From a virus (lineage: Duplodnaviria; Heunggongvirae; Uroviricota; Caudoviricetes), in IMG/VR virus record IMGVR_UViG_2617270957_000009, positions 1-9,619 of that record: a stretch of DNA of 9,619 nt. One strand, given 5' to 3'. Position 1 is the stretch's first letter; every line of letters starts with the position of its first letter. A program made the position numbers and the translations under genes. The notes beneath the pieces were generated by a model. That model made no database searches and was not told the origin of the DNA. It saw only the letters and a list, made by a program, of their open reading frames with translations. Below, in pieces: positions 1 to 9,619 of the stretch.

Positions 1-687
1 CGGCAGGAAACACTGAATGAATGCACCCGTGCGGAGCAGTCGGCCAGCGTGGTGCTCTGGGAAATCGATCTGACAGAGGTCGGTGGAGAACGTTATTTTT
101 TCTGTAATGAGCAGAACGAAAAAGGTGAGCCGGTCACCTGGCAGGGGCGACAGTATCAGCCGTATCCCATTCAGGGGAGTGGTTTTGAACTGAATGGCAA
201 AGGCACCAGTACGCGCCCCACGCTGACGGTTTCTAACCTGTACGGTATGGTCACCGGGATGGCGGAAGATCTGCAGAGTCTGGTCGGCGGAACGGTGGTC
301 CGGCGTAAGGTTTACGCCCGTTTTCTGGATGCGGTGAACTTCGTCAACGGAAACAGTTACGCCGATCCGGAGCAGGAGGTGATCAGCCGCTGGCGCATTG
401 AGCAGTGCAGCGAACTGAGCGCGGTGAGTGCCTCCTTTGTACTGTCCACGCCGACGGAAACGGATGGCGCTGTTTTTCCGGGACGTATCATGCTGGCCAA
501 CACCTGCACCTGGACCTATCGCGGCGATGAGTGCGGTTATCACGGTCCGGCGGTCGCGGATGAATATGACCAGCCAACGTCCGATATCACGAAGGATAAA
601 TGCAGCAAATGCCTGAGCGGTTGTAAGTTCCGCAATAACGTCGGCAACTTTGGCGGCTTCCTTTCCATTAACAAACTTTCGCAGTAA
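1..687 (+). CDS. L: Tail tip protein L, 3' portion (5' end lies upstream of the window)
   Basis: The frame is open from nt 1 (RQETLNECTRAEQSASVVLWEIDLTEVGGERYFFC...) to TAA at 685-687. The translation matches my recollection of phage lambda gpL almost residue for residue, including the Cys-rich C-terminus (CSKCLSGCKF). The ORF track's Met at 49 is internal; the real start is upstream of the window. Confidence 0.93.
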   Translation, partial: RQETLNECTRAEQSASVVLWEIDLTEVGGERYFFCNEQNEKGEPVTWQGRQYQPYPIQGSGFELNGKGTSTRPTLTVSNLYGMVTGMAEDLQSLVGGTVVRRKVYARFLDAVNFVNGNSYADPEQEVISRWRIEQCSELSAVSASFVLSTPTETDGAVFPGRIMLANTCTWTYRGDECGYHGPAVADEYDQPTSDITKDKCSKCLSGCKFRNNVGNFGGFLSINKLSQ

Positions 688-692
688 ATCCC

Positions 693-1436
693 ATGACACA
701 GACAGAATCAGCGATTCTGGCGCACGCCCGGCGATGTGCGCCAGCGGAGTCGTGCGGCTTCGTGGTAAGCACGCCGGAGGGGGAAAGATATTTCCCCTGC
801 GTGAATATCTCCGGTGAGCCGGAGGCGTATTTCCGTATGTCGCCGGAAGACTGGCTGCAGGCAGAAATGCAGGGTGAGATTGTGGCGCTGGTCCACAGCC
901 ACCCCGGTGGTCTGCCCTGGCTGAGTGAGGCCGACCGGCGGCTGCAGGTGCAGAGTGATTTGCCGTGGTGGCTGGTCTGCCGGGGGACGATTCATAAGTT
1001 CCGCTGTGTGCCGCATCTCACCGGGCGGCGCTTTGAGCACGGTGTGACGGACTGTTACACACTGTTCCGGGATGCTTATCATCTGGCGGGGATTGAGATG
1101 CCGGACTTTCATCGTGAGGATGACTGGTGGCGTAACGGCCAGAATCTCTATCTGGATAATCTGGAGGCGACGGGGCTGTATCAGGTGCCGTTGTCAGCGG
1201 CACAGCCGGGCGATGTGCTGCTGTGCTGTTTTGGTTCATCGGTGCCGAATCACGCCGCAATTTACTGCGGCGACGGCGAGCTGCTGCACCATATTCCTGA
1301 ACAACTGAGCAAACGAGAGAGGTACACCGACAAATGGCAGCGACGCACACACTCCCTCTGGCGTCACCGGGCATGGCACGCATCTGCCTTTACGGGGATT
1401 TACAACGATTTGGCCGCCGCATCGATCTTCGTGTGA
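693..1436 (+). CDS. K: Tail tip assembly protein K (N-terminal JAMM/MPN metalloprotease-like domain plus C-terminal NlpC/P60 cysteine peptidase-like domain)
   Basis: 247-aa ORF starting 6 nt after the L stop. It carries a JAMM motif, H-x-H-x7-S-x2-D, in VHSHPGGLPWLSEAD (His codon at 894-896), and NlpC/P60-type Cys/His residues (TDCYTLF, PNHAAIY, LLHH). An alternative internal ATG at 837 would give 199 aa but would remove the N-terminal part of the MPN fold. No clear Shine-Dalgarno precedes 693, so the start is probably coupled to L. Confidence 0.88.
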   Translation: MTQTESAILAHARRCAPAESCGFVVSTPEGERYFPCVNISGEPEAYFRMSPEDWLQAEMQGEIVALVHSHPGGLPWLSEADRRLQVQSDLPWWLVCRGTIHKFRCVPHLTGRRFEHGVTDCYTLFRDAYHLAGIEMPDFHREDDWWRNGQNLYLDNLEATGLYQVPLSAAQPGDVLLCCFGSSVPNHAAIYCGDGELLHHIPEQLSKRERYTDKWQRRTHSLWRHRAWHASAFTGIYNDLAAASIFV

Positions 1437-2005
1437 AAACGGGGGCTGAAGCCATCCGGGCACTGGCCACACAGCTCCCGGCGTTTCGTCAGAAACTGAG
1501 CGACGGCTGGTATCAGGTACGGATTGCCGGGCGGGATGTCAGCACGTCCGGATTAACGGCGCAGTTACATGAGACTCTGCCTGATGGCGCTGTGATTCAT
1601 ATTGTTCCCAGAGTCGCCGGGGCCAAGTCAGGTGGCGTATTCCAGATTGTCCTGGGGGCTGCCGCCATTGCCGGATCATTCTTTACCGCCGGAGCCACCC
1701 TTGCAGCATGGGGGGCAGCCATTGGGACCGGTGGTATGACCGGCATCCTGTTTTCTCTCGGTGCCAGTATGGTGCTCGGTGGTGTGGCGCAGATGCTGGC
1801 ACCGAAAGCCAGGACGCCCACAGCGACCAGCACGGATAACGGTAAGCAGAACACGTATTTCTCTTCACTGGATAACATGGTTGCCCAGGGCAATGTTCTG
1901 CCTGTTCTGTACGGTGAAATGCGCGTGGGGTCACGCGTGGTTTCTCAGGAGATCAGCACGGCAGACGAAGGGGACGGTGGTCAGGTTGTGGTGATTGGTC
2001 GCTGA
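1334..2005 (+). CDS. I: Tail tip assembly protein I
   Basis: 223-aa ORF with an N-terminal ubiquitin-like region and a Gly/Ala-rich hydrophobic segment (GGVFQIVLGAAAIAGSFFTAGATLAAWGAAIGTGG). Its position between K and J, and its 103-nt out-of-frame overlap with the 3' end of K, match the lambda arrangement. Confidence 0.9.
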   Translation: MAATHTLPLASPGMARICLYGDLQRFGRRIDLRVKTGAEAIRALATQLPAFRQKLSDGWYQVRIAGRDVSTSGLTAQLHETLPDGAVIHIVPRVAGAKSGGVFQIVLGAAAIAGSFFTAGATLAAWGAAIGTGGMTGILFSLGASMVLGGVAQMLAPKARTPTATSTDNGKQNTYFSSLDNMVAQGNVLPVLYGEMRVGSRVVSQEISTADEGDGGQVVVIGR

Positions 2006-2065: not shown

Positions 2066-5000
2066 ATGGGTAAAGGCAGCAGTAAGGGGCATACCCCGCG
2101 CGAAGCAAAGGACAACCTGAAGTCCACGCAGTTGCTGAGTGTGATCGATGCCATCAGCGAAGGGCCGGTTGAAGGTCCGGTGGATGGATTAAAAAGCGTG
2201 CTGCTGAACAGTACACCGGTGCTGGACAGTGAGGGAAATACCAACATCTCCGGCGTCACGGTGGTGTTCCGGGCAGGTGAGCAGGAACAGACACCGCCGG
2301 AGGGATTTGAATCATCAGGTTCCGAGACGGTACTGGGTACGGAAGTGAAATACGACACGCCGATCACCCACACCATTACGTCTGCAAACATCGACCGTCT
2401 GCGCTTTACCTTCGGTGTGCAGGCACTGGTGGAAACCACTTCAAAGGGGGACCGTAATCCATCGGAAGTCCGCCTGCTGGTTCAGATACAGCGTAACGGT
2501 GGCTGGGTGACGGAAAAAGACATCACCATTAAGGGCAAAACCACCTCGCAGTATCTGGCCTCGGTGGTGGTGGATAACCTGCCTCCGCGCCCGTTCAACA
2601 TCCGGATGCGCAGGATGACGCCGGACAGCACCACAGACCAGCTGCAGAACAAAACGCTCTGGTCGTCATACACCGAAATCATCGATGTGAAACAGTGCTA
2701 CCCGAACACGGCACTGGTCGGCGTGCAGGTGGACTCGGAACAGTTCGGCAGCCAGCAGGTGAGCCGTAATTATCATCTTCGCGGGCGCATTCTGCAGGTG
2801 CCGTCGAACTATAACCCGCAGACGCGGCAATACAGCGGTATCTGGGACGGGACGTTTAAACCGGCATACAGCAACAACATGGCCTGGTGTCTGTGGGATA
2901 TGCTGACCCACCCGCGCTACGGCATGGGTAAACGTCTTGGTGCGGCAGATGTGGATAAATGGGCGCTGTATGTCATCGGCCAGAATTGCGACCAGTCGGT
3001 GCCGGACGGTTTTGGCGGCACGGAGCCGCGCATCACCTGTAATGCGTACCTGACCACACAGCGCAAGGCGTGGGATGTGCTCAGTGATTTTTGCTCGGCG
3101 ATGCGCTGTATGCCGGTATGGAACGGGCAGACGCTGACATTCGTGCAGGACCGACCGTCGGATAAGGTGTGGACCTATAACCGCAGTAATGTGGTGATGC
3201 CGGATGATGGCGCGCCGTTCCGCTACAGCTTCAGCGCCCTGAAGGACCGCCATAATGCCGTTGAGGTGAACTGGATTGACCCGGATAACGGCTGGGAGAC
3301 GGCGACAGAGCTTGTGGAGGACACGCAGGCCATTGCCCGTTACGGTCGTAACGTCACGAAGATGGATGCCTTTGGCTGTACCAGTCGGGGGCAGGCACAC
3401 CGCGCCGGGCTGTGGCTGATTAAAACGGAGCTGCTGGAAACGCAGACCGTGGACTTCAGCGTGGGCGCAGAAGGGCTTCGCCATGTACCGGGCGATGTCA
3501 TTGAAATCTGCGATGATGACTATGCGGGTATCAGCATCGGCGGGCGCGTGCTGGCGGTGAACAGCCAGGCGCGGACACTGACGCTCGACCGTGAAATCAT
3601 GCTGCCATCCTCCGGCACCACGCTGATAAGCCTGGTTGACGGAAATGGCAATCCGGTCAGCGTGGAGGTCCAGTCCGTCACCGACGGCGTGAAGGTGAAA
3701 GTGAGCCGTGTTCCTGACGGCGTTGCCGGATACAGCGTGTGGGGACTGAAGCTGCCGACGCTGCGCCAGCGCCTGTTCCGCTGCGTGAGTATCCGTGAGA
3801 ACGACGACGGCACGTATGCCATCACCGCCGTGCAGCATGTACCGGCAAAAGAGGCCATCGTGGATAACGGGGCGCACTTTGACGGCGACCAGAGCGGCAC
3901 GGTGAATGGTGTCACGCCGCCAGCAGTGCAGCACCTGACTGCCGAAGTCACCGCAGACAGCGGGGAGTATCAGGTACTGGCCCGCTGGGACACGCCGAAG
4001 GTGGTGAAGGGCGTAAGTTTCATGCTTCGCCTGACCGTGGCAGCGGATGACGGCAGTGAGCGGCTGGTCAGCACAGCCCGGACGGCGGAAACCACATACC
4101 GCTTCACACAACTGGCGCTGGGGAACTACAGGCTGACAGTCCGGGCAGTAAATGCGTGGGGGCAGCAGGGCGATCCGGCATCGGTATCGTTCCGGATTGC
4201 CGCACCGGCAGCGCCGTCGCAGATTGAGCTGACACCGGGGTATTTTCAGATAACCGCCACGCCGCATCTTGCGGTTTATGATCCGACGGTACAGTTTGAG
4301 TTCTGGTTCTCGGAAAAGCGGATTGCGGATATCAGGCAGGTTGAAACCACAGCACGCTATCTTGGCACGGCGCTGTACTGGATAGCCGCCAGTATCAATA
4401 TCAAACCGGGCCATGATTATTATTTTTACATCCGCAGTGTGAACACCGTTGGCAAATCGGCATTTGTGGAGGCTGTTGGCCAGCCGAGTGATGATGCATC
4501 CGGCTATCTGAATTTTTTCAAAGGAGAGATAGGGAAAACCCATCTGGCTCAGGAGTTGTGGACGCAGATTGATAACGGTCAGCTTGCGCCTGACCTGGCT
4601 GAAATCAGGACGTCCATTACGGGTGTCAGCAATGAAATCACGCAGACCGTCAATAAGAAACTGGAAGACCAGAGTGCAGCGATCCAGCAGATACAGAAGG
4701 TTCAGGTTGATACAAATAATAATCTGAACAGCATGTGGGCTGTGAAGCTGCAGCAGATGCAGGATGGACGCCTTTATATTGCGGGTATCGGTGCCGGTAT
4801 TGAGAACACCCCTGACGGCATGCAGAGTCAGGTGCTGCTGGCGGCGGACAGGATTGCGATGGTTAATCCTGCGAATGGCAACACAAAACCGATGTTTGTT
4901 GGTCAGGGCGATCAGATATTCATGAACGACGTGTTCCTGAAACGCCTGACGGCCCCCACCATTACCAGCGGTGGAAATCCACCGGCATTTTCCCTGACAC

Positions 5001-5548
5001 CGGACGGGCGGCTGACGGCGAAAAATGCCGATATCAGCGGTAACGTGAATGCGAACTCCGGGACGCTCAACAACGTCACGATTAACGAGAACTGTCGGAT
5101 TCTGGGAAAACTGTCAGCTAACCAGATTGAAGGTGATATTGTCAAAACGGTGGGAAAAGCCTTTCCGAGAAATGGCAGTTATGCCAGCGGTACAATAACG
5201 GTCACTGTGTACGATGACCAGGCTTTTGACCGTCAGATAGTAGTCCCCCCCGTTCTGTTTCGCGGTGGTAAGCATGAAAACTTCAACAGCAACAACCAAC
5301 AGTCATACTGGTATTCAACCTGTAAGCTGCAGGTGCTGAAGAACGGACAGGAAATCTTTCAGCAACCCGCGACGGATGTCAGCAGGGTATTTTCATCAGT
5401 CATTGATATGCCTGCCGGACACGGCCATGTCACCCTGACTTTCAATGTTTCTTCATATGGTGCAAATAACTGGACGCCAACGACCAGTATCAGCGACCTT
5501 CTTGTTGTCGTGATGAAGAAATCAACAGCCGGTATCAGTATCAGTTGA
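2066..5548 (+). CDS. J: Central tail fibre / host specificity protein J
   Basis: 1160-aa ORF with a strong RBS (GAGGA 5 nt before ATG). The N-terminal roughly 800 aa match my recollection of lambda gpJ ([34 protein letters not shown]...), including a fibronectin-III-like segment. The C-terminal roughly 350 aa are a mosaic of conserved islands ([38 protein letters not shown]) and divergent stretches. Stop is TGA at 5546-5548. Confidence 0.95.
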
Positions 5549-5565
5549 ATTTTAAAACCCAAATT

Positions 5566-5593
5566 CGGGCACCAGAAATGGTGCCTTTTTTAT
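5566..5593 (+). terminator. Rho-independent terminator downstream of J
   Basis: Stem GGCACC (5568-5573) / GGTGCC (5580-5585) with loop AGAAAT, followed by TTTTTTATTT, 20 nt after the J stop. Confidence 0.7.
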
Positions 5594-5606
5594 TTGTGGA
5601 GTGAAT

Positions 5607-7961
5607 ATGGCAGTACAGATTTCAGGTGTGCTGAAAGACGGTGCAGGAAAACCGATACAGAACTGCACCATTCAGCTCAAAGCAAAACGTAACAGCACCA
5701 CGGTTGTGGTAAACACGGTGGCCTCAGAAAATCCGGATGAAGCCGGACGTTACAGCATGGATGTCGAGTATGGCCAGTACAGCGTTATCCTGCTGGTTGA
5801 AGGTTTTCCGCCTTCACATGCCGGGACCATTACCGTCTATGAAGGTTCCAGTCCGGGGACGCTGAATGATTTTCTCGGTGCCATGACGGAAGATGATGTC
5901 ATGCCGGAGGCATTGCGTCGTTTTGAGGCAATGGTGGAAGAAGCGGCACGCAACGCCGAAGCCGCCTCTCAGAGCGCAGCGGCGGCAAAGAAATCCGAAA
6001 CTGCAGCGGCATCATCGAAGAACGCGGCGAAAACCTCAGAAACGAATGCAGCTAATAGTGCACAGGCGGCAGCGACCTCACAGACTGCATCGGCAAACTC
6101 CGCGACAGCAGCCAAAAAATCAGAAACCAACGCGAAAAATAGCGAGACAGCCGCAAAGACGAGTGAAATCAACGCAAAGTCCAGCCAGACGGCAGCGAAG
6201 ACCAGCGAAACGAATGCCAAAGCCAGTGAAACTGCGGCGAAAAGCAGTCAAGCTGCAGCAGCCGAAAGCGAGAGTGTTGCAGCCGGTTCTGCGACTTCAG
6301 CAGCTGGATCAGCAACTGCTGCGGCTAACAGCCAGAAAGCTGCGAAGACGAGTGAAACTAACGCAAAGTCCAGCCAGACGGCAGCGAAGACCAGCGAAAC
6401 GAATGCCAAAGCCAGCGAAACTGCGGCGAAAAACAGTCAGGATGCAGCAGCCGAAAGCGAGAGTGCTGCAGCTGGTTCTGCAACAGCGGCAGCTAATAGC
6501 CAAAAAGCTGCAAAAGCCAGTGAAACTAACGCAAAGACGAGTGAAACAAAAGCAGCAGCTAGCGAGACAGAAGCAACGTCAGCCGCAACAAGAGCAGAGA
6601 ATGCAGCCCGGATTGCAGAAGATGCCGCTGATCCTGCTTCTGTCCCTCCGCTTCCTGATATCTGGCTACCCATGAATGATTCTCTGGAAGCGATAACAGG
6701 GTATGCCCCGGGCTATAAAACAATAACCATCGGCAGTGATGAAATAACAATGCCTGTTAATGGCATATGCCAATTTAGCCGGGCTTCATCTGCAACGTAT
6801 ATTGATAAGTCAGGGCATATTACCGTGGCAGGGAATAACGTTCCTCGTTTTGAAAAATATGGTTTGCTGATAGAGAATCAGCGAACAAACATGTTCGTAA
6901 ATAGTTTTAATCCTGATGCCTGGAATAAAAGCGGTGGTATATCTGTAACATCATCAACAGATGAATTTGAGTTTAAATATGGACGTTTCACAGTAGGAAG
7001 CGACATAGCAGGAACGACAACAGGGAGAAATATATGCACAGTTGCTGGTAATAAAGGCATAGATGTGACTGGCGATGATCAGTACAGTAAAGGTCCGTAT
7101 GTTACCGCGTCGTTCAGGGTAAGAAGTGATCTCAATGTTCGCGCACGTATCCGTTTTGAACGGTATAACTCGGAAGGATACACTTTCCTTTGTGACGCCT
7201 ATTTGTCATTACAGACCCATGAACTACAAATTACGGGTGGTAATGCCCAGCTATTAACAGCAAACTTTGAAATCGATCCAGGTAGTGGATGGATATATTT
7301 TCAGGCAACCCTGAAATGTTTGCCAGAATGGGGAATGGTTGGTACGCAGTTGCAAATTGCAGCCGACAGAGCTGTGGGGTCTTTTGCAACAGGTGACTGG
7401 ATAGAAGTAACCACCCCGCAATTTGAGTATGGTGCTTGTGCAACTTCCTTTATCATAACGACAACAGAGCCAGCTACTCGTGCATCAGATTTATGTAAAT
7501 TTCCGCTGATGAAAAATATGTATACCATGCCTTTTACGTTCATGGTGGAAGTCCATAAAAACTGGTTTATTTCTCATAATGCTGCACCGCGTGTCATTGA
7601 TTCAGAAAATCACCAGTCCGGGGGCCCATTTATTATGGGGTTTGGTTCTTCTGGAACTATCAGTCAGGACGGTTATTCGTATTGCGATATAGGCGGGGCT
7701 AACCGACGTGTATATGAGTCATGCGGAGTAAGAGATCTCGTTATGGGATTCAGGGTTAAGGCTGACGGCATGACATGCTCATTTGCAAATAAGCATATAA
7801 GCACAGAAACAAAAACAGTATGGAAATATATTCGTGAAGCTGCTGTGATTCGTATCGGGGGACAAACGACGACAGGATTACGACACCTTAATGGTCATAT
7901 AAAAAACCTCCGTTTCTGGAACAGAGCATTGTCAGATACGCAGCTTAAGGAATACGTATAA
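5607..7961 (+). CDS. stf: Side tail fibre protein (lambda Stf-like N-terminus, Ala/Ser-rich repeat shaft, LamG/concanavalin A-like C-terminal domain)
   Basis: The ORF track starts at GTG 5601, but ATG 5607 with GGAG at 5598-5601 (5-nt spacer) is the better start, giving MAVQISGVLKDGAGKPIQNCTIQLKAKRNSTTVVVNTV..., which matches the conserved N-terminus of lambda Stf. The middle is repetitive (AAKTSETNAK...). The C-terminus ends in ...IRIGGQTTTGLRHLNGHIKNLRFWNRALSDTQLKEYV, typical of the final strands of LamG-type jelly-roll domains. Stop is TAA at 7959-7961. Length is 784 aa from ATG 5607. Confidence 0.88.
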   Translation: MAVQISGVLKDGAGKPIQNCTIQLKAKRNSTTVVVNTVASENPDEAGRYSMDVEYGQYSVILLVEGFPPSHAGTITVYEGSSPGTLNDFLGAMTEDDVMPEALRRFEAMVEEAARNAEAASQSAAAAKKSETAAASSKNAAKTSETNAANSAQAAATSQTASANSATAAKKSETNAKNSETAAKTSEINAKSSQTAAKTSETNAKASETAAKSSQAAAAESESVAAGSATSAAGSATAAANSQKAAKTSETNAKSSQTAAKTSETNAKASETAAKNSQDAAAESESAAAGSATAAANSQKAAKASETNAKTSETKAAASETEATSAATRAENAARIAEDAADPASVPPLPDIWLPMNDSLEAITGYAPGYKTITIGSDEITMPVNGICQFSRASSATYIDKSGHITVAGNNVPRFEKYGLLIENQRTNMFVNSFNPDAWNKSGGISVTSSTDEFEFKYGRFTVGSDIAGTTTGRNICTVAGNKGIDVTGDDQYSKGPYVTASFRVRSDLNVRARIRFERYNSEGYTFLCDAYLSLQTHELQITGGNAQLLTANFEIDPGSGWIYFQATLKCLPEWGMVGTQLQIAADRAVGSFATGDWIEVTTPQFEYGACATSFIITTTEPATRASDLCKFPLMKNMYTMPFTFMVEVHKNWFISHNAAPRVIDSENHQSGGPFIMGFGSSGTISQDGYSYCDIGGANRRVYESCGVRDLVMGFRVKADGMTCSFANKHISTETKTVWKYIREAAVIRIGGQTTTGLRHLNGHIKNLRFWNRALSDTQLKEYV
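6156..6512 (+). repeat. In-frame near-perfect tandem duplication (189-nt unit = 63 aa) inside the stf shaft region
   Basis: Copy 1 at 6156-6344 and copy 2 at 6345-6512 are almost identical at nucleotide level (AAGACGAGTGAAA.CAACGCAAAGTCCAGCCAGACGGCAGCGAAGACCAGCGAAACGAATGCCAAAGCCAG...). Copy 2 lacks a 21-nt segment (GSATSAAGSATAAANSQ versus GSATAAANSQ). Degenerate shorter units encoding AAK(T/S)SETNA extend from about 5985 to about 6570. Confidence 0.85.
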
Positions 7962-8230
7962 TGCGGGATATAACATTACGATTCGATAACAGAGAACAGT
8001 TTAACGCAATTGTATATGACAGTGGCCTGTTCAGTCTTGAAGAAGAAAACGGGGTTCTTGTTGATGTTATTGGCTGCATTATCGATTACGAGGAGCCAGA
8101 AAACGAAAGATGTACAGGCATTGATCGCGGTGGTTTTTTCGTAAACATGAGGATTGTTGATAGCAGTAAAAACATATCTTCTTTAATGCCTTTCATTACG
8201 ACAGATCAGCATGTAAGGACATGGGCTTAA
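7961..8230 (+). CDS. Hypothetical small acidic protein (89 aa), translationally coupled to stf; function unknown
   Basis: Its ATG at 7961-7963 overlaps the stf stop codon (TAATG), and AAGGAA lies 8 nt upstream. The ORF is A+T-rich and acidic (MRDITLRFDNREQFNAIVYDSGLFSLEEENGVLVDVIGCIIDYEEPENER...). I recognise no motif. It does not resemble lambda-type Tfa. Confidence 0.6.
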   Translation: MRDITLRFDNREQFNAIVYDSGLFSLEEENGVLVDVIGCIIDYEEPENERCTGIDRGGFFVNMRIVDSSKNISSLMPFITTDQHVRTWA

Positions 8231-8242
8231 TGGAGTAAGACA

Positions 8243-9283
8243 ATGGTTACAAAAACAGTAATTCCTGAAGACATCAAAACGCTAAAATCCGACGTTAGAA
8301 AATTAAAAAACGATCAAGGAAGCTACGCAACAAAATCATATGTAGACAGCAAAGATGAAACCGTTGGTGACTGGTCTGCTTCATGGTATCAGCAGGTATT
8401 GCCAACTAGCGGAGCTATATTTGGGAGAAAACTCCGCTCAACTCACCGGACGGCAGGTGTTGAGGATGCGTATTGCGAACTATACCTCAAAAAATGGATA
8501 GACAGTCCAGGTAACGCAATGGCGCGCCTTAACCTGAACGATAACGGGACAAACATTTGCTGGGACTTTACCAACCTTTATGGCGGTACGATGATTTTTC
8601 CCGGTGGCAGCGGATACCTCAAAATGGGTAACTGCCTTATGTCATACAGCAAGCGTGGAAGTAACGCGCTTATTAAATTTGATTACACCGACACATTACA
8701 GATCAAATATGCTAATCATGGGTCAACCATGACATTAAACACACAGGGAACCGCTTATGCTGGTGTTACCGCTAAATTGTGGGGCAACTCCAGCCGTCCT
8801 GTTGTTTATGAAGTCGGTGTTGATGGTGGCGCTTATATGTTCTACGGTCAGAAACAAACCGATAATACCTATGCGTTCGCTGTTAATGGTGCATGTCATG
8901 CCACCGCCTTTAACCAGGCTTCCGACCGAGATCTGAAAGATAATCTTCAGGTGATTGATAATGCAACAGATCGCATCCGCAAGATGAACGGCTATACCTA
9001 TACCCTTAAGGAAAACGGTATGCCCTATGCAGGTGTCATTGCACAGGAAGCTCTGGAAGCAATCCCGGAAGTTGTAGGCTCCGCAATGAAATATCAGGAC
9101 GGTGGAAACGGCTCGGAAGGGGAAGAAGGTGAGCGTTACTACACTGTAGATTATTCTGGTATTACTGGCTTGCTTGTTCAGGTAGCCAGAGAGTCAGACG
9201 ACAGAATAACAGCACTGGAAGAAGAAAACGCAGAATTAAGACAAAGATTATCTGCAATTGAGGCGGCGCTTGCGTCTAAATAA
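8243..9283 (+). CDS. Tail fibre / tailspike-like protein with C-terminal peptidase S74 intramolecular chaperone (auto-processing) domain
   Basis: GGAG lies 7 nt upstream of the ATG. The C-terminal roughly 120 aa fit the S74 chaperone-domain pattern: SDRDLKDN...(K)MNGYTYTLKENG.PYAGVIAQEALEAIPEVV...ERYYTVDYSGITGLLVQVARE, followed by a coiled-coil-like tail (ITALEEENAELRQRLSAIEAALASK). The N-terminal 226 aa are Gly/Thr/Tyr-rich and beta-rich in character. Confidence 0.82.
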   Translation: MVTKTVIPEDIKTLKSDVRKLKNDQGSYATKSYVDSKDETVGDWSASWYQQVLPTSGAIFGRKLRSTHRTAGVEDAYCELYLKKWIDSPGNAMARLNLNDNGTNICWDFTNLYGGTMIFPGGSGYLKMGNCLMSYSKRGSNALIKFDYTDTLQIKYANHGSTMTLNTQGTAYAGVTAKLWGNSSRPVVYEVGVDGGAYMFYGQKQTDNTYAFAVNGACHATAFNQASDRDLKDNLQVIDNATDRIRKMNGYTYTLKENGMPYAGVIAQEALEAIPEVVGSAMKYQDGGNGSEGEEGERYYTVDYSGITGLLVQVARESDDRITALEEENAELRQRLSAIEAALASK

Positions 9284-9289
9284 TATTAA

Positions 9290-9312
9290 GGGGCCGAGCG
9301 CCCCGTTTTATT
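9290..9312 (+). terminator. Rho-independent terminator after the S74 fibre gene
   Basis: Stem GGGGC (9290-9294) / GCCCC (9300-9304) with a 5-nt loop, followed by GTTTTATT, immediately after the TAA stop at 9281-9283. Confidence 0.65.
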
Positions 9313-9325
9313 GGGTAGGATGAAA

Positions 9326-9619
9326 ATGGATATAACACCTTTCCTTCATGCACTTTGTGCTGTGGCTGCACAGCTACTGATTGGTCTTTTTACCGGGAAC
9401 TGGGCTTACGGAGCGATAGTCGGTTGTACGTTCTTCATTGCGCGTGAACACACCCAGGCAGAATATCGCTGGATTGAAATGTTCGGGCATGGCAAGCGAA
9501 TGAATATGCCGTGGTGGGGCGGTTTTGATCCTCGTGCTTGGGATGTGGCAAGCCTGATGGATTTTGCTGTGCCGGTGGTGGCGTGTCTGCTGGTCTGGCT
9601 GTTGGTTAATCGTGGGTGA
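9326..9619 (+). CDS. Small predicted inner-membrane protein (about 97 aa, three hydrophobic segments), function unknown
   Basis: The ORF runs to TGA at 9617-9619. AGGA at 9317-9320 is well spaced for ATG 9326; in-frame alternatives are ATG 9320 and TTG 9311. Hydrophobic helices: FLHALCAVAAQLLIGLFTG, AYGAIVGCTFFIA and LMDFAVPVVACLLVWLLV, with a Trp/Gly-rich loop (PWWGGFDPRAWD). I do not recognise the family. Confidence 0.6.
   Translation: MDITPFLHALCAVAAQLLIGLFTGNWAYGAIVGCTFFIAREHTQAEYRWIEMFGHGKRMNMPWWGGFDPRAWDVASLMDFAVPVVACLLVWLLVNRG

Follow-up and report, generated by a model that had tools for sequence, protein, structure and literature searches.

The side tail fibre gene in the window (the whole 9,619-nt stretch of viral DNA that was analysed) carries a tandem 189-nt repeat. 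We read it as an old block of two units within the fibre's coiled-coil rod, the fibre being of lambda type; whole units would rarely be gained or lost by unequal exchange. We give this reading a probability of roughly 85%. The repeat is an ordinary feature, and hundreds of independent assemblies, among them complete genomes and isolated phages, have the two-copy state.

Tandem Repeats Finder reports period-189 arrays at 6141-6481 (1.8 copies, 92% matches, score 598) and 6152-6554 (2.1 copies), and a separate repeat search returns two 189-nt copies spaced 189 nt apart (Table 1). The tandem in-frame duplication placed by an earlier note at 6156-6512 is real; its coordinates describe this repeat with a 6-nt shift of register. 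Global alignment of copy 1 with copy 2 gives 153/168 identical positions (91%), with 15 substitutions and one 21-nt gap, so that the copies are duplicated as described but are not near-identical; the 21-nt indel was correctly described and equals exactly one heptad. Ten of the substitutions are synonymous, and the remaining five lie in four non-synonymous codons. When copy 1 is scanned along the sequence, identity is 91.8% at 189 nt downstream, 38-59% at every other offset that is a multiple of 21 nt, and ~33% at other in-frame offsets; with one offset so far above all the rest, the repeat is not due to chance. Both copies lie in the frame of a single 786-codon ORF, copy 2 joining copy 1 in frame. 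Minus-strand ORFs over the array (e.g. 6309-6503) are taken as by-products of low-complexity coding sequence. No Chi sites are found in the window.

Table 1. Features of the side tail fibre gene and its repeat (window coordinates)
Feature	Position	Strand	Description and basis
Stf-like side tail fibre gene	5601-7961	+	ORF from GTG 5601; likely start ATG 5607 after GGAG; PF08400, 9e7m and phrog_1419 matches
Array of ~34 heptads	5916-6635	+	aa 106-345; 21-nt periodicity; predicted alpha-helical rod corresponding to the proximal coiled coil of lambda Stf
Copy 1, 9-heptad unit	6150-6338	+	189 nt, 63 aa: AAKTSEINAKSSQTAAKTSETNAKASETAAKSSQAAAAESESVAAGSATSAAGSATAAANSQK; Tandem Repeats Finder, repeat search, alignment; mostly c1-type diagnostic bases
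56-nt core	6171-6226, partner 6360-6415	+	Longest in-register run identical between the copies; from mismatch positions
Extra heptad in copy 1 (21-nt indel vs copy 2)	6291-6311	+	Second AAGSAT heptad; alignment gap, placement alignment-dependent
Copy 2 of unit	6339-6506	+	168 nt, 56 aa; repeat searches, alignment; c2-type diagnostic bases at positions 3, 6, 15, 21
Third unit, head only, degenerate	6507-6554	+	AAKASETNAKTSETKA...; Tandem Repeats Finder row 6152-6554 and translation
Mosaic joint, shared N-domain/shaft module vs type-specific C-terminal module	6447-6489	+	Identity drop against phage ev207 stf
C-terminal, presumed receptor-binding region	6636-7958	+	Not of lambda/T4 gp37 type; NF048003 GTA_spike_fiber aa 423-628, E=2e-12; phrog_1419, phrog_5939

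The N-terminus of the encoded protein matches the phage_tail_N collar domain (PF08400, aa 3-133, E=1.1e-67, 226.6 bits, with the cut-off at 26.6) and the Ur-lambda Stf N-domain chain 9e7m (aa 3-96, E=9.8e-50), and a phrog_1419 match spans its full length. Upstream lie the tail-tip genes Phage_tail_L (49-687), JAB/NlpC K (693-1436), Lambda_tail_I (1334-2005) and J (2066-5548), and stf adjoins L-K-I-J on the downstream side, which is the lambdoid tail operon order. These matches and the gene order support the assignment as an Stf-type side tail fibre of a lambda-like prophage, and agree with the placement of the repeat in the Stf shaft by the earlier note. Membership of the family rests on the N-domain and shaft, the distal module being different from that of lambda. 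The C-terminal region has no Pfam match. The ORFs downstream of stf match phrog_1361, a Peptidase_S74 fibre protein and phrog_1443, and no Tfa homologue is detected there. The lom gene is missing from the operon in the window and present in relatives.

As read from the sequence, the 189-nt repeat is a higher-order unit of nine 7-residue heptads within an array with an Ala/Ser core. Ala occupies column 3 of the array in 32/33 heptads and Ser occupies column 6 in 29/33, giving a 3/4 spacing, and identity within the array is 43-59% at 21-nt offsets vs 33% at other in-frame offsets. No Pfam repeat family matches the array, the only Pfam hits to the protein being PF08400 and a sub-threshold CarboxypepD_reg, and an NCBIfam SMC match to the fibre is compositional. 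A single-sequence AF2 monomer model contains helices at residues 101-225 and 235-343 (pLDDT mostly 70-90); it folds the rod back at aa 226-234, and is thus silent on oligomer state and length. In Ur-lambda Stf, StfN and a linker are followed directly by the proximal coiled coil, at residues 102-393 (PMC12617516). By analogy with this fibre, the array presumably forms a proximal alpha-helical coiled-coil rod, and the rod would be a trimer (PMC12617516). At a rise of 1.48 A per residue, gain or loss of one 63-aa unit would change the rod by ~9.3 nm. The fold-back of the monomer model is an artefact known from lambda Stf too. The Ala/Ser core departs from the canonical hydrophobic one, and counts against a coiled-coil reading.

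The age of the duplication can be judged from 110 distinct two-copy alleles, in which copy 1 (c1) and copy 2 (c2) are distinguished by diagnostic bases at unit positions 3, 6, 15, 21 and from 126 onward. Identity between alleles is 95.9% for c1 with c1 and 95.7% for c2 with c2, while c1 with c2 gives 91.0% between alleles and 91.2% within alleles; the c1/c2 pattern is also present in E. ruysiae and Escherichia sp. E1V33. Because the two copies in one allele are as different as those in separate alleles, and because the diagnostic bases are shared, the duplication is not recent, contrary to the earlier note. The comparison shows an old two-unit arrangement, the standard architecture for a group of Escherichia prophage Stf proteins.

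The length of the window's fibre type (stf with the same C-terminal type as the window) is likewise stable. The spacing between the LNDFL and PPLPD motifs is 261 aa, as in the window, in 74/75 close proteins, two of these 74 clusters representing 830 and 2185 member sequences, and the sole exception (P0084) has scrambled residues in the array. Among 131 complete-genome matches covering at least 80% of the gene, from the 4,888 E. coli records of this search, the 40 listed are all of the same length and colinear, bar one IS2 insertion. No one-copy allele with the window's C-terminal type is found in complete genomes. The collapse of the repeat in short-read assemblies, which the earlier note anticipated, was not observed: ~70 partial proteins from draft contigs span both copies without loss, and break off further along, within the C-terminal domain.

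A sister Stf type (~791 aa, e.g. P0120) is encoded by phages ev207, Tritos, HannyBb, PhiR63_1 and IdasGreatGrand and by many E. coli, E. marmotae and E. ruysiae prophages. Its N-domain and shaft DNA is mostly 93-100% identical to that of the window until ~6446 (in ev207 stf, two 60-nt bins fall to 85-88%), with the same c1/c2 pair and diagnostic bases, but identity is ~50% past ~6450, over the later heptads and C-terminal domain. Many phage matches stop at query 894, corresponding to window position 6494, and the one shaft module is found joined to several different C-terminal domains. Since copy 2 has 63 aa in the sister type, the 56-aa copy 2 is specific to the window's fibre type.

Copy-number variants occur in the sister type, and partial, one, two and three copies are found among related phages and prophages. 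One-copy alleles are present in phage IdasGreatGrand (732 aa) and in the complete E. coli chromosomes CP124498 (735 aa), LR898874 (738 aa) and OZ001728 (728 aa). The single unit of IdasGreatGrand, CP124498, LR898874 and the one-copy IMG/VR loci is a hybrid, c1-type at the 5' end and c2-type at the 3' end; that of OZ001728 is of pure c1 type. In one three-copy allele (L034), the middle unit is the reciprocal hybrid, c2-type at the 5' end and c1-type at the 3' end, and in the other (L001, from GCA_036902485.1), two units are 189/189 identical. The switch points of the hybrids in one- and three-copy alleles fall at unit positions 22-125, a range that includes the 56-nt core. Anchor-to-anchor spacings are 173, 215, 229, 271, 278 and 341 aa in the sister type and 265 and 272 aa in the window type, differing within each type only by multiples of 7 aa, and the variants are encoded by uninterrupted ORFs of 728-854 aa. 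The hybrids and identical units are signatures of rare unequal crossover or slippage. We find no description of the unit or of its copy-number variation in the literature searched.

Units were typed by anchor-to-anchor spacing, a 50-nt DNA core and the diagnostic sites, as a fuzzy protein motif over-counted them owing to the resemblance of neighbouring heptads to the core. For the one-copy query, the number of records with at least 80% coverage (1000) is non-discriminating; the top five colinear matches were taken as candidates, of which three were verified. The three-copy query on complete E. coli genomes joined overlapping pieces of two-copy alleles as '100% covered', and this search cannot separate two from three copies. 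Even with variant-enriched searches, a few percent of the distinct alleles are variants; this is a census of alleles and yields no frequencies.

These data bear on the suggestion that the duplication is recent or the locus actively hypervariable, with frequent shifts of copy number among close isolates or inside one population. The 91% identity of the copies with a 56-nt identical core, and the existence of one- and three-copy alleles in the wider family, are in keeping with it, and the 189/189-identical units of L001 imply at least one recent gain somewhere. For the window, however, this reading is very improbable and largely refuted: the copies are orthologous by position over the 110 alleles and several Escherichia species, identity within alleles is no higher than that between paralogues of different alleles, the spacing is the same in 74 close protein clusters and the 40 complete-genome matches listed of 131, and variants are scarce despite the enrichment. 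Neither the frequent change among close isolates nor the near-identical units of a contingency locus are found. The earlier note's suggestion that copy number could vary between isolates holds for relatives, which have one to three copies and hybrid units, but not for the window type, whose copy number is constant in these clusters and matches.

Assembly artefacts, whether in the window's duplication or in the one- and three-copy variants of relatives, are a very improbable source of these patterns. A collapsed assembly would yield the same c1/c2 hybrid as a true deletion, and L002/P0079 (GCA_049220325.1), which has one copy with the window's C-terminal type, could be such a collapse, being a 2,248-nt contig that starts within the gene and runs into an IS element at its end. 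Draft assemblies are the only source of the two three-copy alleles, and none is found among isolated phages. Two copies nevertheless recur widely across independent assemblies, and one-copy alleles with intact ORFs are present in three circular complete chromosomes; the c2/c1 hybrid in the middle of L034 is specific, and an assembler would not invent it.

Under the preferred reading of an old two-unit block, an ancient duplication produced the two-unit state, which the window's fibre type now carries unchanged. Misaligned homologous recombination or replication slippage may then occasionally remove or add one whole unit, which is made possible by the highly conserved core shared by the units (56 nt identical in the window). 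Because all indels are multiples of 21 nt, they leave the reading frame and heptad register untouched and alter rod length alone. As for the recombination pathway, we infer that relaxed phage Rad52-type recombinases are a plausible agent (PMC3945230).

Copy-number change might also serve as adaptive tuning of fibre length, by which the reach of the fibre is fitted to the host surface (the depth of its O-antigen or capsule, for instance) or else to that of the central J fibre. The intact variant ORFs and register-keeping indels, the joining of one shaft module to several C-terminal domains, and the strong predominance of two copies, which is compatible with selection on length, would all suit such tuning. 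Register-keeping indels are, however, equally expected from purifying selection alone, and the variants are rare and scattered, making adaptive tuning unlikely. We are similarly doubtful that the 63-aa unit is a modular length ruler, in which rare ~9-nm gain or loss, combined with an exchange of modules at the joint near the end of copy 2, would be selected for reach to different glycan depths or receptor-binding domains; if it were, copy number would be an adaptive parameter of host range or adsorption rate, beyond neutral variation.

On the reading of an old block with rare unequal exchange, the tandem duplication, however conspicuous in this prophage fibre gene, is a stable, ancient design element, rather than a marker of recent rearrangement or an assembly hazard. 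The one-, two- and three-unit alleles show clearly, in natural phages and prophages, the reciprocal products of unequal exchange in a coiled-coil rod. In practice the consequences are modest; joints such as the one at which the conserved N-domain and shaft are fused to varied receptor-binding modules are useful for the design of chimeric Stf fibres for engineered lambda-based vectors.

Among known fibres, lambda and Ur-lambda Stf resemble the window's fibre in the nearly identical N-terminal collar (aa 3-96, E=1e-49), the long Ala/Ser/Thr/Lys/Glu-rich heptad region at the same position, and the location of the gene after J. Lambda-type records align over the first 473 nt of the gene only, so the array sequence differs past that point, and the array is ~240 aa long vs 292 aa in Ur-lambda Stf. 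The C-terminus of the window's fibre is of the GTA_spike_fiber/phrog_1419 type, without a detected Tfa, whereas lambda has a gp37-like distal part with a Tfa chaperone. Residues 35-227 of the phage T5 L-shaped fibre pb1 (8hqz) are weakly similar to aa 153-347 (E=2.8e-7), a low-complexity match with high bias for which homology is not established.

In the trimeric adenovirus fibre shaft, the number of pseudo-repeats sets shaft length between serotypes; this shaft folds as a triple beta-spiral, unlike a helical coiled coil. In streptococcal M protein and similar coiled-coil surface fibrils, heptad-based in-frame blocks are gained and lost by intragenic homologous recombination, so that length changes with the register kept, and M-protein size variants are frequent and immune-selected. 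Compared with M protein, repeat variants in these side tail fibres are rare, and two copies persist stably from species to species.

The Stf shaft encoded in the window contains a real in-frame tandem duplication. It is a long-established structural element of a protein family that is already known, and units are gained or lost only rarely, by textbook unequal exchange. Tandem Repeats Finder detects an array of period 189 (92% matches, score 598), and sequence identity at an offset of 189 nt is 91.8%, compared with 38-59% at every other 21-nt multiple, placing the similarity far above the surrounding low-complexity background and confirming the in-frame duplication proposed in the earlier note. 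The two copies are identical at 153 of 168 aligned bases (91%), with one 21-nt gap, 15 substitutions of which 10 are synonymous, and a longest identical stretch of 56 nt. Their description as near-identical was therefore overstated, and the 21-nt indel is present as described, comprising exactly one heptad (a repeat of the 'AAGSAT' heptad within copy 1).

The repeat lies within a 786-codon ORF that follows the distal genes (L, K, I and J) of a lambdoid tail operon, and translation probably starts at ATG 5607, just after a GGAG. At the N-terminus, aa 3-133 form a PF08400 'prophage tail fibre N-terminal' domain (E=1e-67), and aa 3-96 can be aligned at almost every residue with the collar domain of Ur-lambda Stf (structure 9E7M/9MGH, E=1e-49), so the name Stf is justified for the N-domain and shaft. 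The gap between J and stf is without lom, and a T-run followed by the GGAG precedes the ATG; an Ail/Lom gene occupies this position in most related loci (L001, L083-L085, L237-L239), and phage ev207 (locus L086) is likewise without it. Three ORFs follow stf, among which (7961-9619) no Tfa-type assembly protein was seen.

Features of the window discussed here
Feature	Position (nt)	Length	Remarks
L	49-687		tail operon, upstream of stf
K	693-1436		tail operon, upstream of stf
I	1334-2005		tail operon, upstream of stf
J	2066-5548		tail operon, upstream of stf
J-stf gap	5549-5600
stf ORF	5601-7961	786 codons
Period-189 array	6141-6481		2.1 copies when taken to 6554
Copy 1	6150-6338	63 aa	codon register
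Copy 2	6339-6506	56 aa	codon register
Gly-bearing 'AAGSAT' heptads	6276-6317		aa 226-239; found in each unit
Stf C-terminal region	6636-7958	440 aa
Downstream ORF 1		89 aa	overlaps stf stop; phrog_1361 match
Downstream ORF 2	8243-9283	346 aa	fibre protein; Peptidase_S74 intramolecular chaperone domain, phrog_4563
Downstream ORF 3	starts 9311		phrog_1443

The age of the duplication was assessed on a set of 120 different array alleles drawn from IMG/VR, genomes and isolated phages, of which the 110 clean two-copy alleles were compared. Between alleles, copy 1 is 95.9% identical to copy 1 and copy 2 is 95.7% identical to copy 2, whereas copy 1 and copy 2 are 91.0% identical between alleles and 91.2% within alleles. 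The bases that distinguish the copies (unit positions 3, 6, 15, 21, and 126 onward) are conserved in nearly all alleles, and the genomes representing the species E. ruysiae and Escherichia sp. E1V33 show the pattern too. Because the copies are no more alike within an allele than between alleles, each copy keeps its own position-specific bases across alleles, and the pattern recurs in other Escherichia species, the duplication is older than the diversification of this Stf fibre group, with weak concerted evolution, and the suggestion that it is recent is rejected. Copy 1 of the window carries two copy-2-type bases, and some polymorphisms are common to both paralogous positions, compatible with occasional short conversion tracts between the copies.

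In the fibre type of the window, copy number is constant. The spacing between the LNDFL and PPLPD markers is 261 aa, as in the window, in 74 of 75 close proteins (97-99% identity, both markers present), which include two clusters representing 830 and 2185 member sequences; the exception, P0084, has a spacing of 262 aa and scrambled residues in the array. In 131 complete E. coli genomes the match spans 80% or more of the gene; the 40 of these that were listed each align colinearly in one piece without change of length, with one IS2 insertion as the sole departure, and a one-copy query with the window C-terminal type gave no colinear match in complete genomes. The suggestion of active variation does not hold for this type. 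Its only one-copy example (L002/P0079, GCA_049220325.1) is from a 2.2-kb draft contig (JAQQQV010000189.1), with an IS (rve transposase) breaking the gene at codon 534, and may be an assembly artefact caused by collapse. General collapse in short-read assemblies, also predicted, does not hold: short draft contigs yield about 70 'partial' proteins in which both copies are complete, the truncation falling beyond them in the C-terminal domain. Since perfect identity between copies extends over only 56 nt, collapse is not expected at the k-mer and read lengths in common use; short reads might under-count alleles whose units include an identical pair (e.g. L001).

Variation of the kind suggested in the note does occur in the wider family, with one-, two- and three-copy alleles. 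The sister type is 93-100% identical to the window over most of the shaft as far as ~6446 and carries another C-terminal domain; in this type variation is real but rare. One-copy alleles are present in phage IdasGreatGrand (732 aa), as intact ORFs in the complete chromosomes CP124498 (735 aa), LR898874 (738 aa) and OZ001728 (728 aa), and in the IMG/VR loci L087-L089. Three-copy alleles are present in E. coli GCA_036902485.1 (L001, 854 aa) and the IMG/VR locus L034, with none among isolated phages; P0072 and P0073 are also 854 aa. Phages ev243, PhiR40_1 and PhiR49_2 retain only a fragment of one unit. The E. ruysiae genome encodes a second Stf (L242) with a conserved N-domain, the sister-type junction motif and a different, shorter heptad array (spacing 173 aa) lacking the 63-aa unit.

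The one-copy alleles of IdasGreatGrand, CP124498, LR898874 and IMG/VR have copy-1-type bases at positions 3-21 and copy-2-type bases from 126 onward, and the middle unit of L034 is the reciprocal (5' copy-2-type, 3' copy-1-type), with the switch within the conserved core in both cases, giving these variants the hallmarks of unequal exchange. Two units of L001 are identical at 189/189 positions, indicating a separate and recent gain, and the single unit of OZ001728 is pure copy-1-type, representing a separate loss or an ancestral state. L034 and L001 on the one hand, and the hybrids and OZ001728 on the other, thus document no fewer than two gains and one-copy alleles of at least two kinds. Anchor-to-anchor spacings (173, 215, 229, 271, 278 and 341 aa in the sister type, 265 and 272 aa in the window type) differ within each type solely by multiples of 7 aa, and only events preserving the heptad register survive. 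The enzymes responsible may be lambdoid Rad52-type recombinases, which are known to recombine diverged repeats (PMC3945230). At least one place matching the gene is present in 4,816 of 5,426 complete E. coli genomes (median 2, up to 13 per genome), making shaft sequences of multiple resident prophages available for ectopic recombination.

The end of the repeat is the seam between a shared N-domain/shaft module and interchangeable distal modules, since identity to ev207 stf, mostly 93-100% upstream of about 6447-6489, falls sharply there to ~50%, in the copy-2 tail and exactly at the 21-nt indel, and many phage matches stop at the equivalent position (query 894). Module shuffling inside the heptad array is exemplified by P0067 (718 aa), in which a different, non-PF08400 N-terminal region is fused part-way through copy 1, followed by copy 2 and the window C-terminal type. 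The C-terminal region of the window Stf is not lambda/T4 gp37-like and has no Pfam match. Its hits are to NCBIfam NF048003 (GTA/head spike fibre domain; aa 423-628, E=2e-12) and to phrog_1419/5939, and it probably holds the receptor-binding fold.

Residues 106-345 form ~34 consecutive heptads, with Ala in column 3 (32/33) and Ser in column 6 (29/33), giving the 3/4 spacing of a and d positions. A single-sequence AlphaFold2 model contains long helices at 101-225 and 235-343 (pLDDT mostly 70-90); the sole break in the monomer, where the chain folds back, is at the Gly-containing heptads 226-234, and may be a flexible point in the rod or only a modelling artefact. Full-length AlphaFold models of Ur-lambda gpStf show an artificial fold-back, and that protein has a matching layout of StfN (1-91), linker (92-101) and proximal trimeric coiled coil (102-393) (PMC12617516). 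The rod is presumably trimeric, and at 1.48 A per residue one unit would span ~9.3 nm and the whole array ~36 nm. Given the heptad layout, the helical model and the Ur-lambda domain map, the 189-nt unit is a nine-heptad higher-order repeat within the proximal rod, and the window Stf shares with gpStf the order of N-domain followed by proximal heptad/coiled-coil region. We found no description of this 189-nt/63-aa unit in the literature, and it is a fresh example of a kind of feature that is already known.
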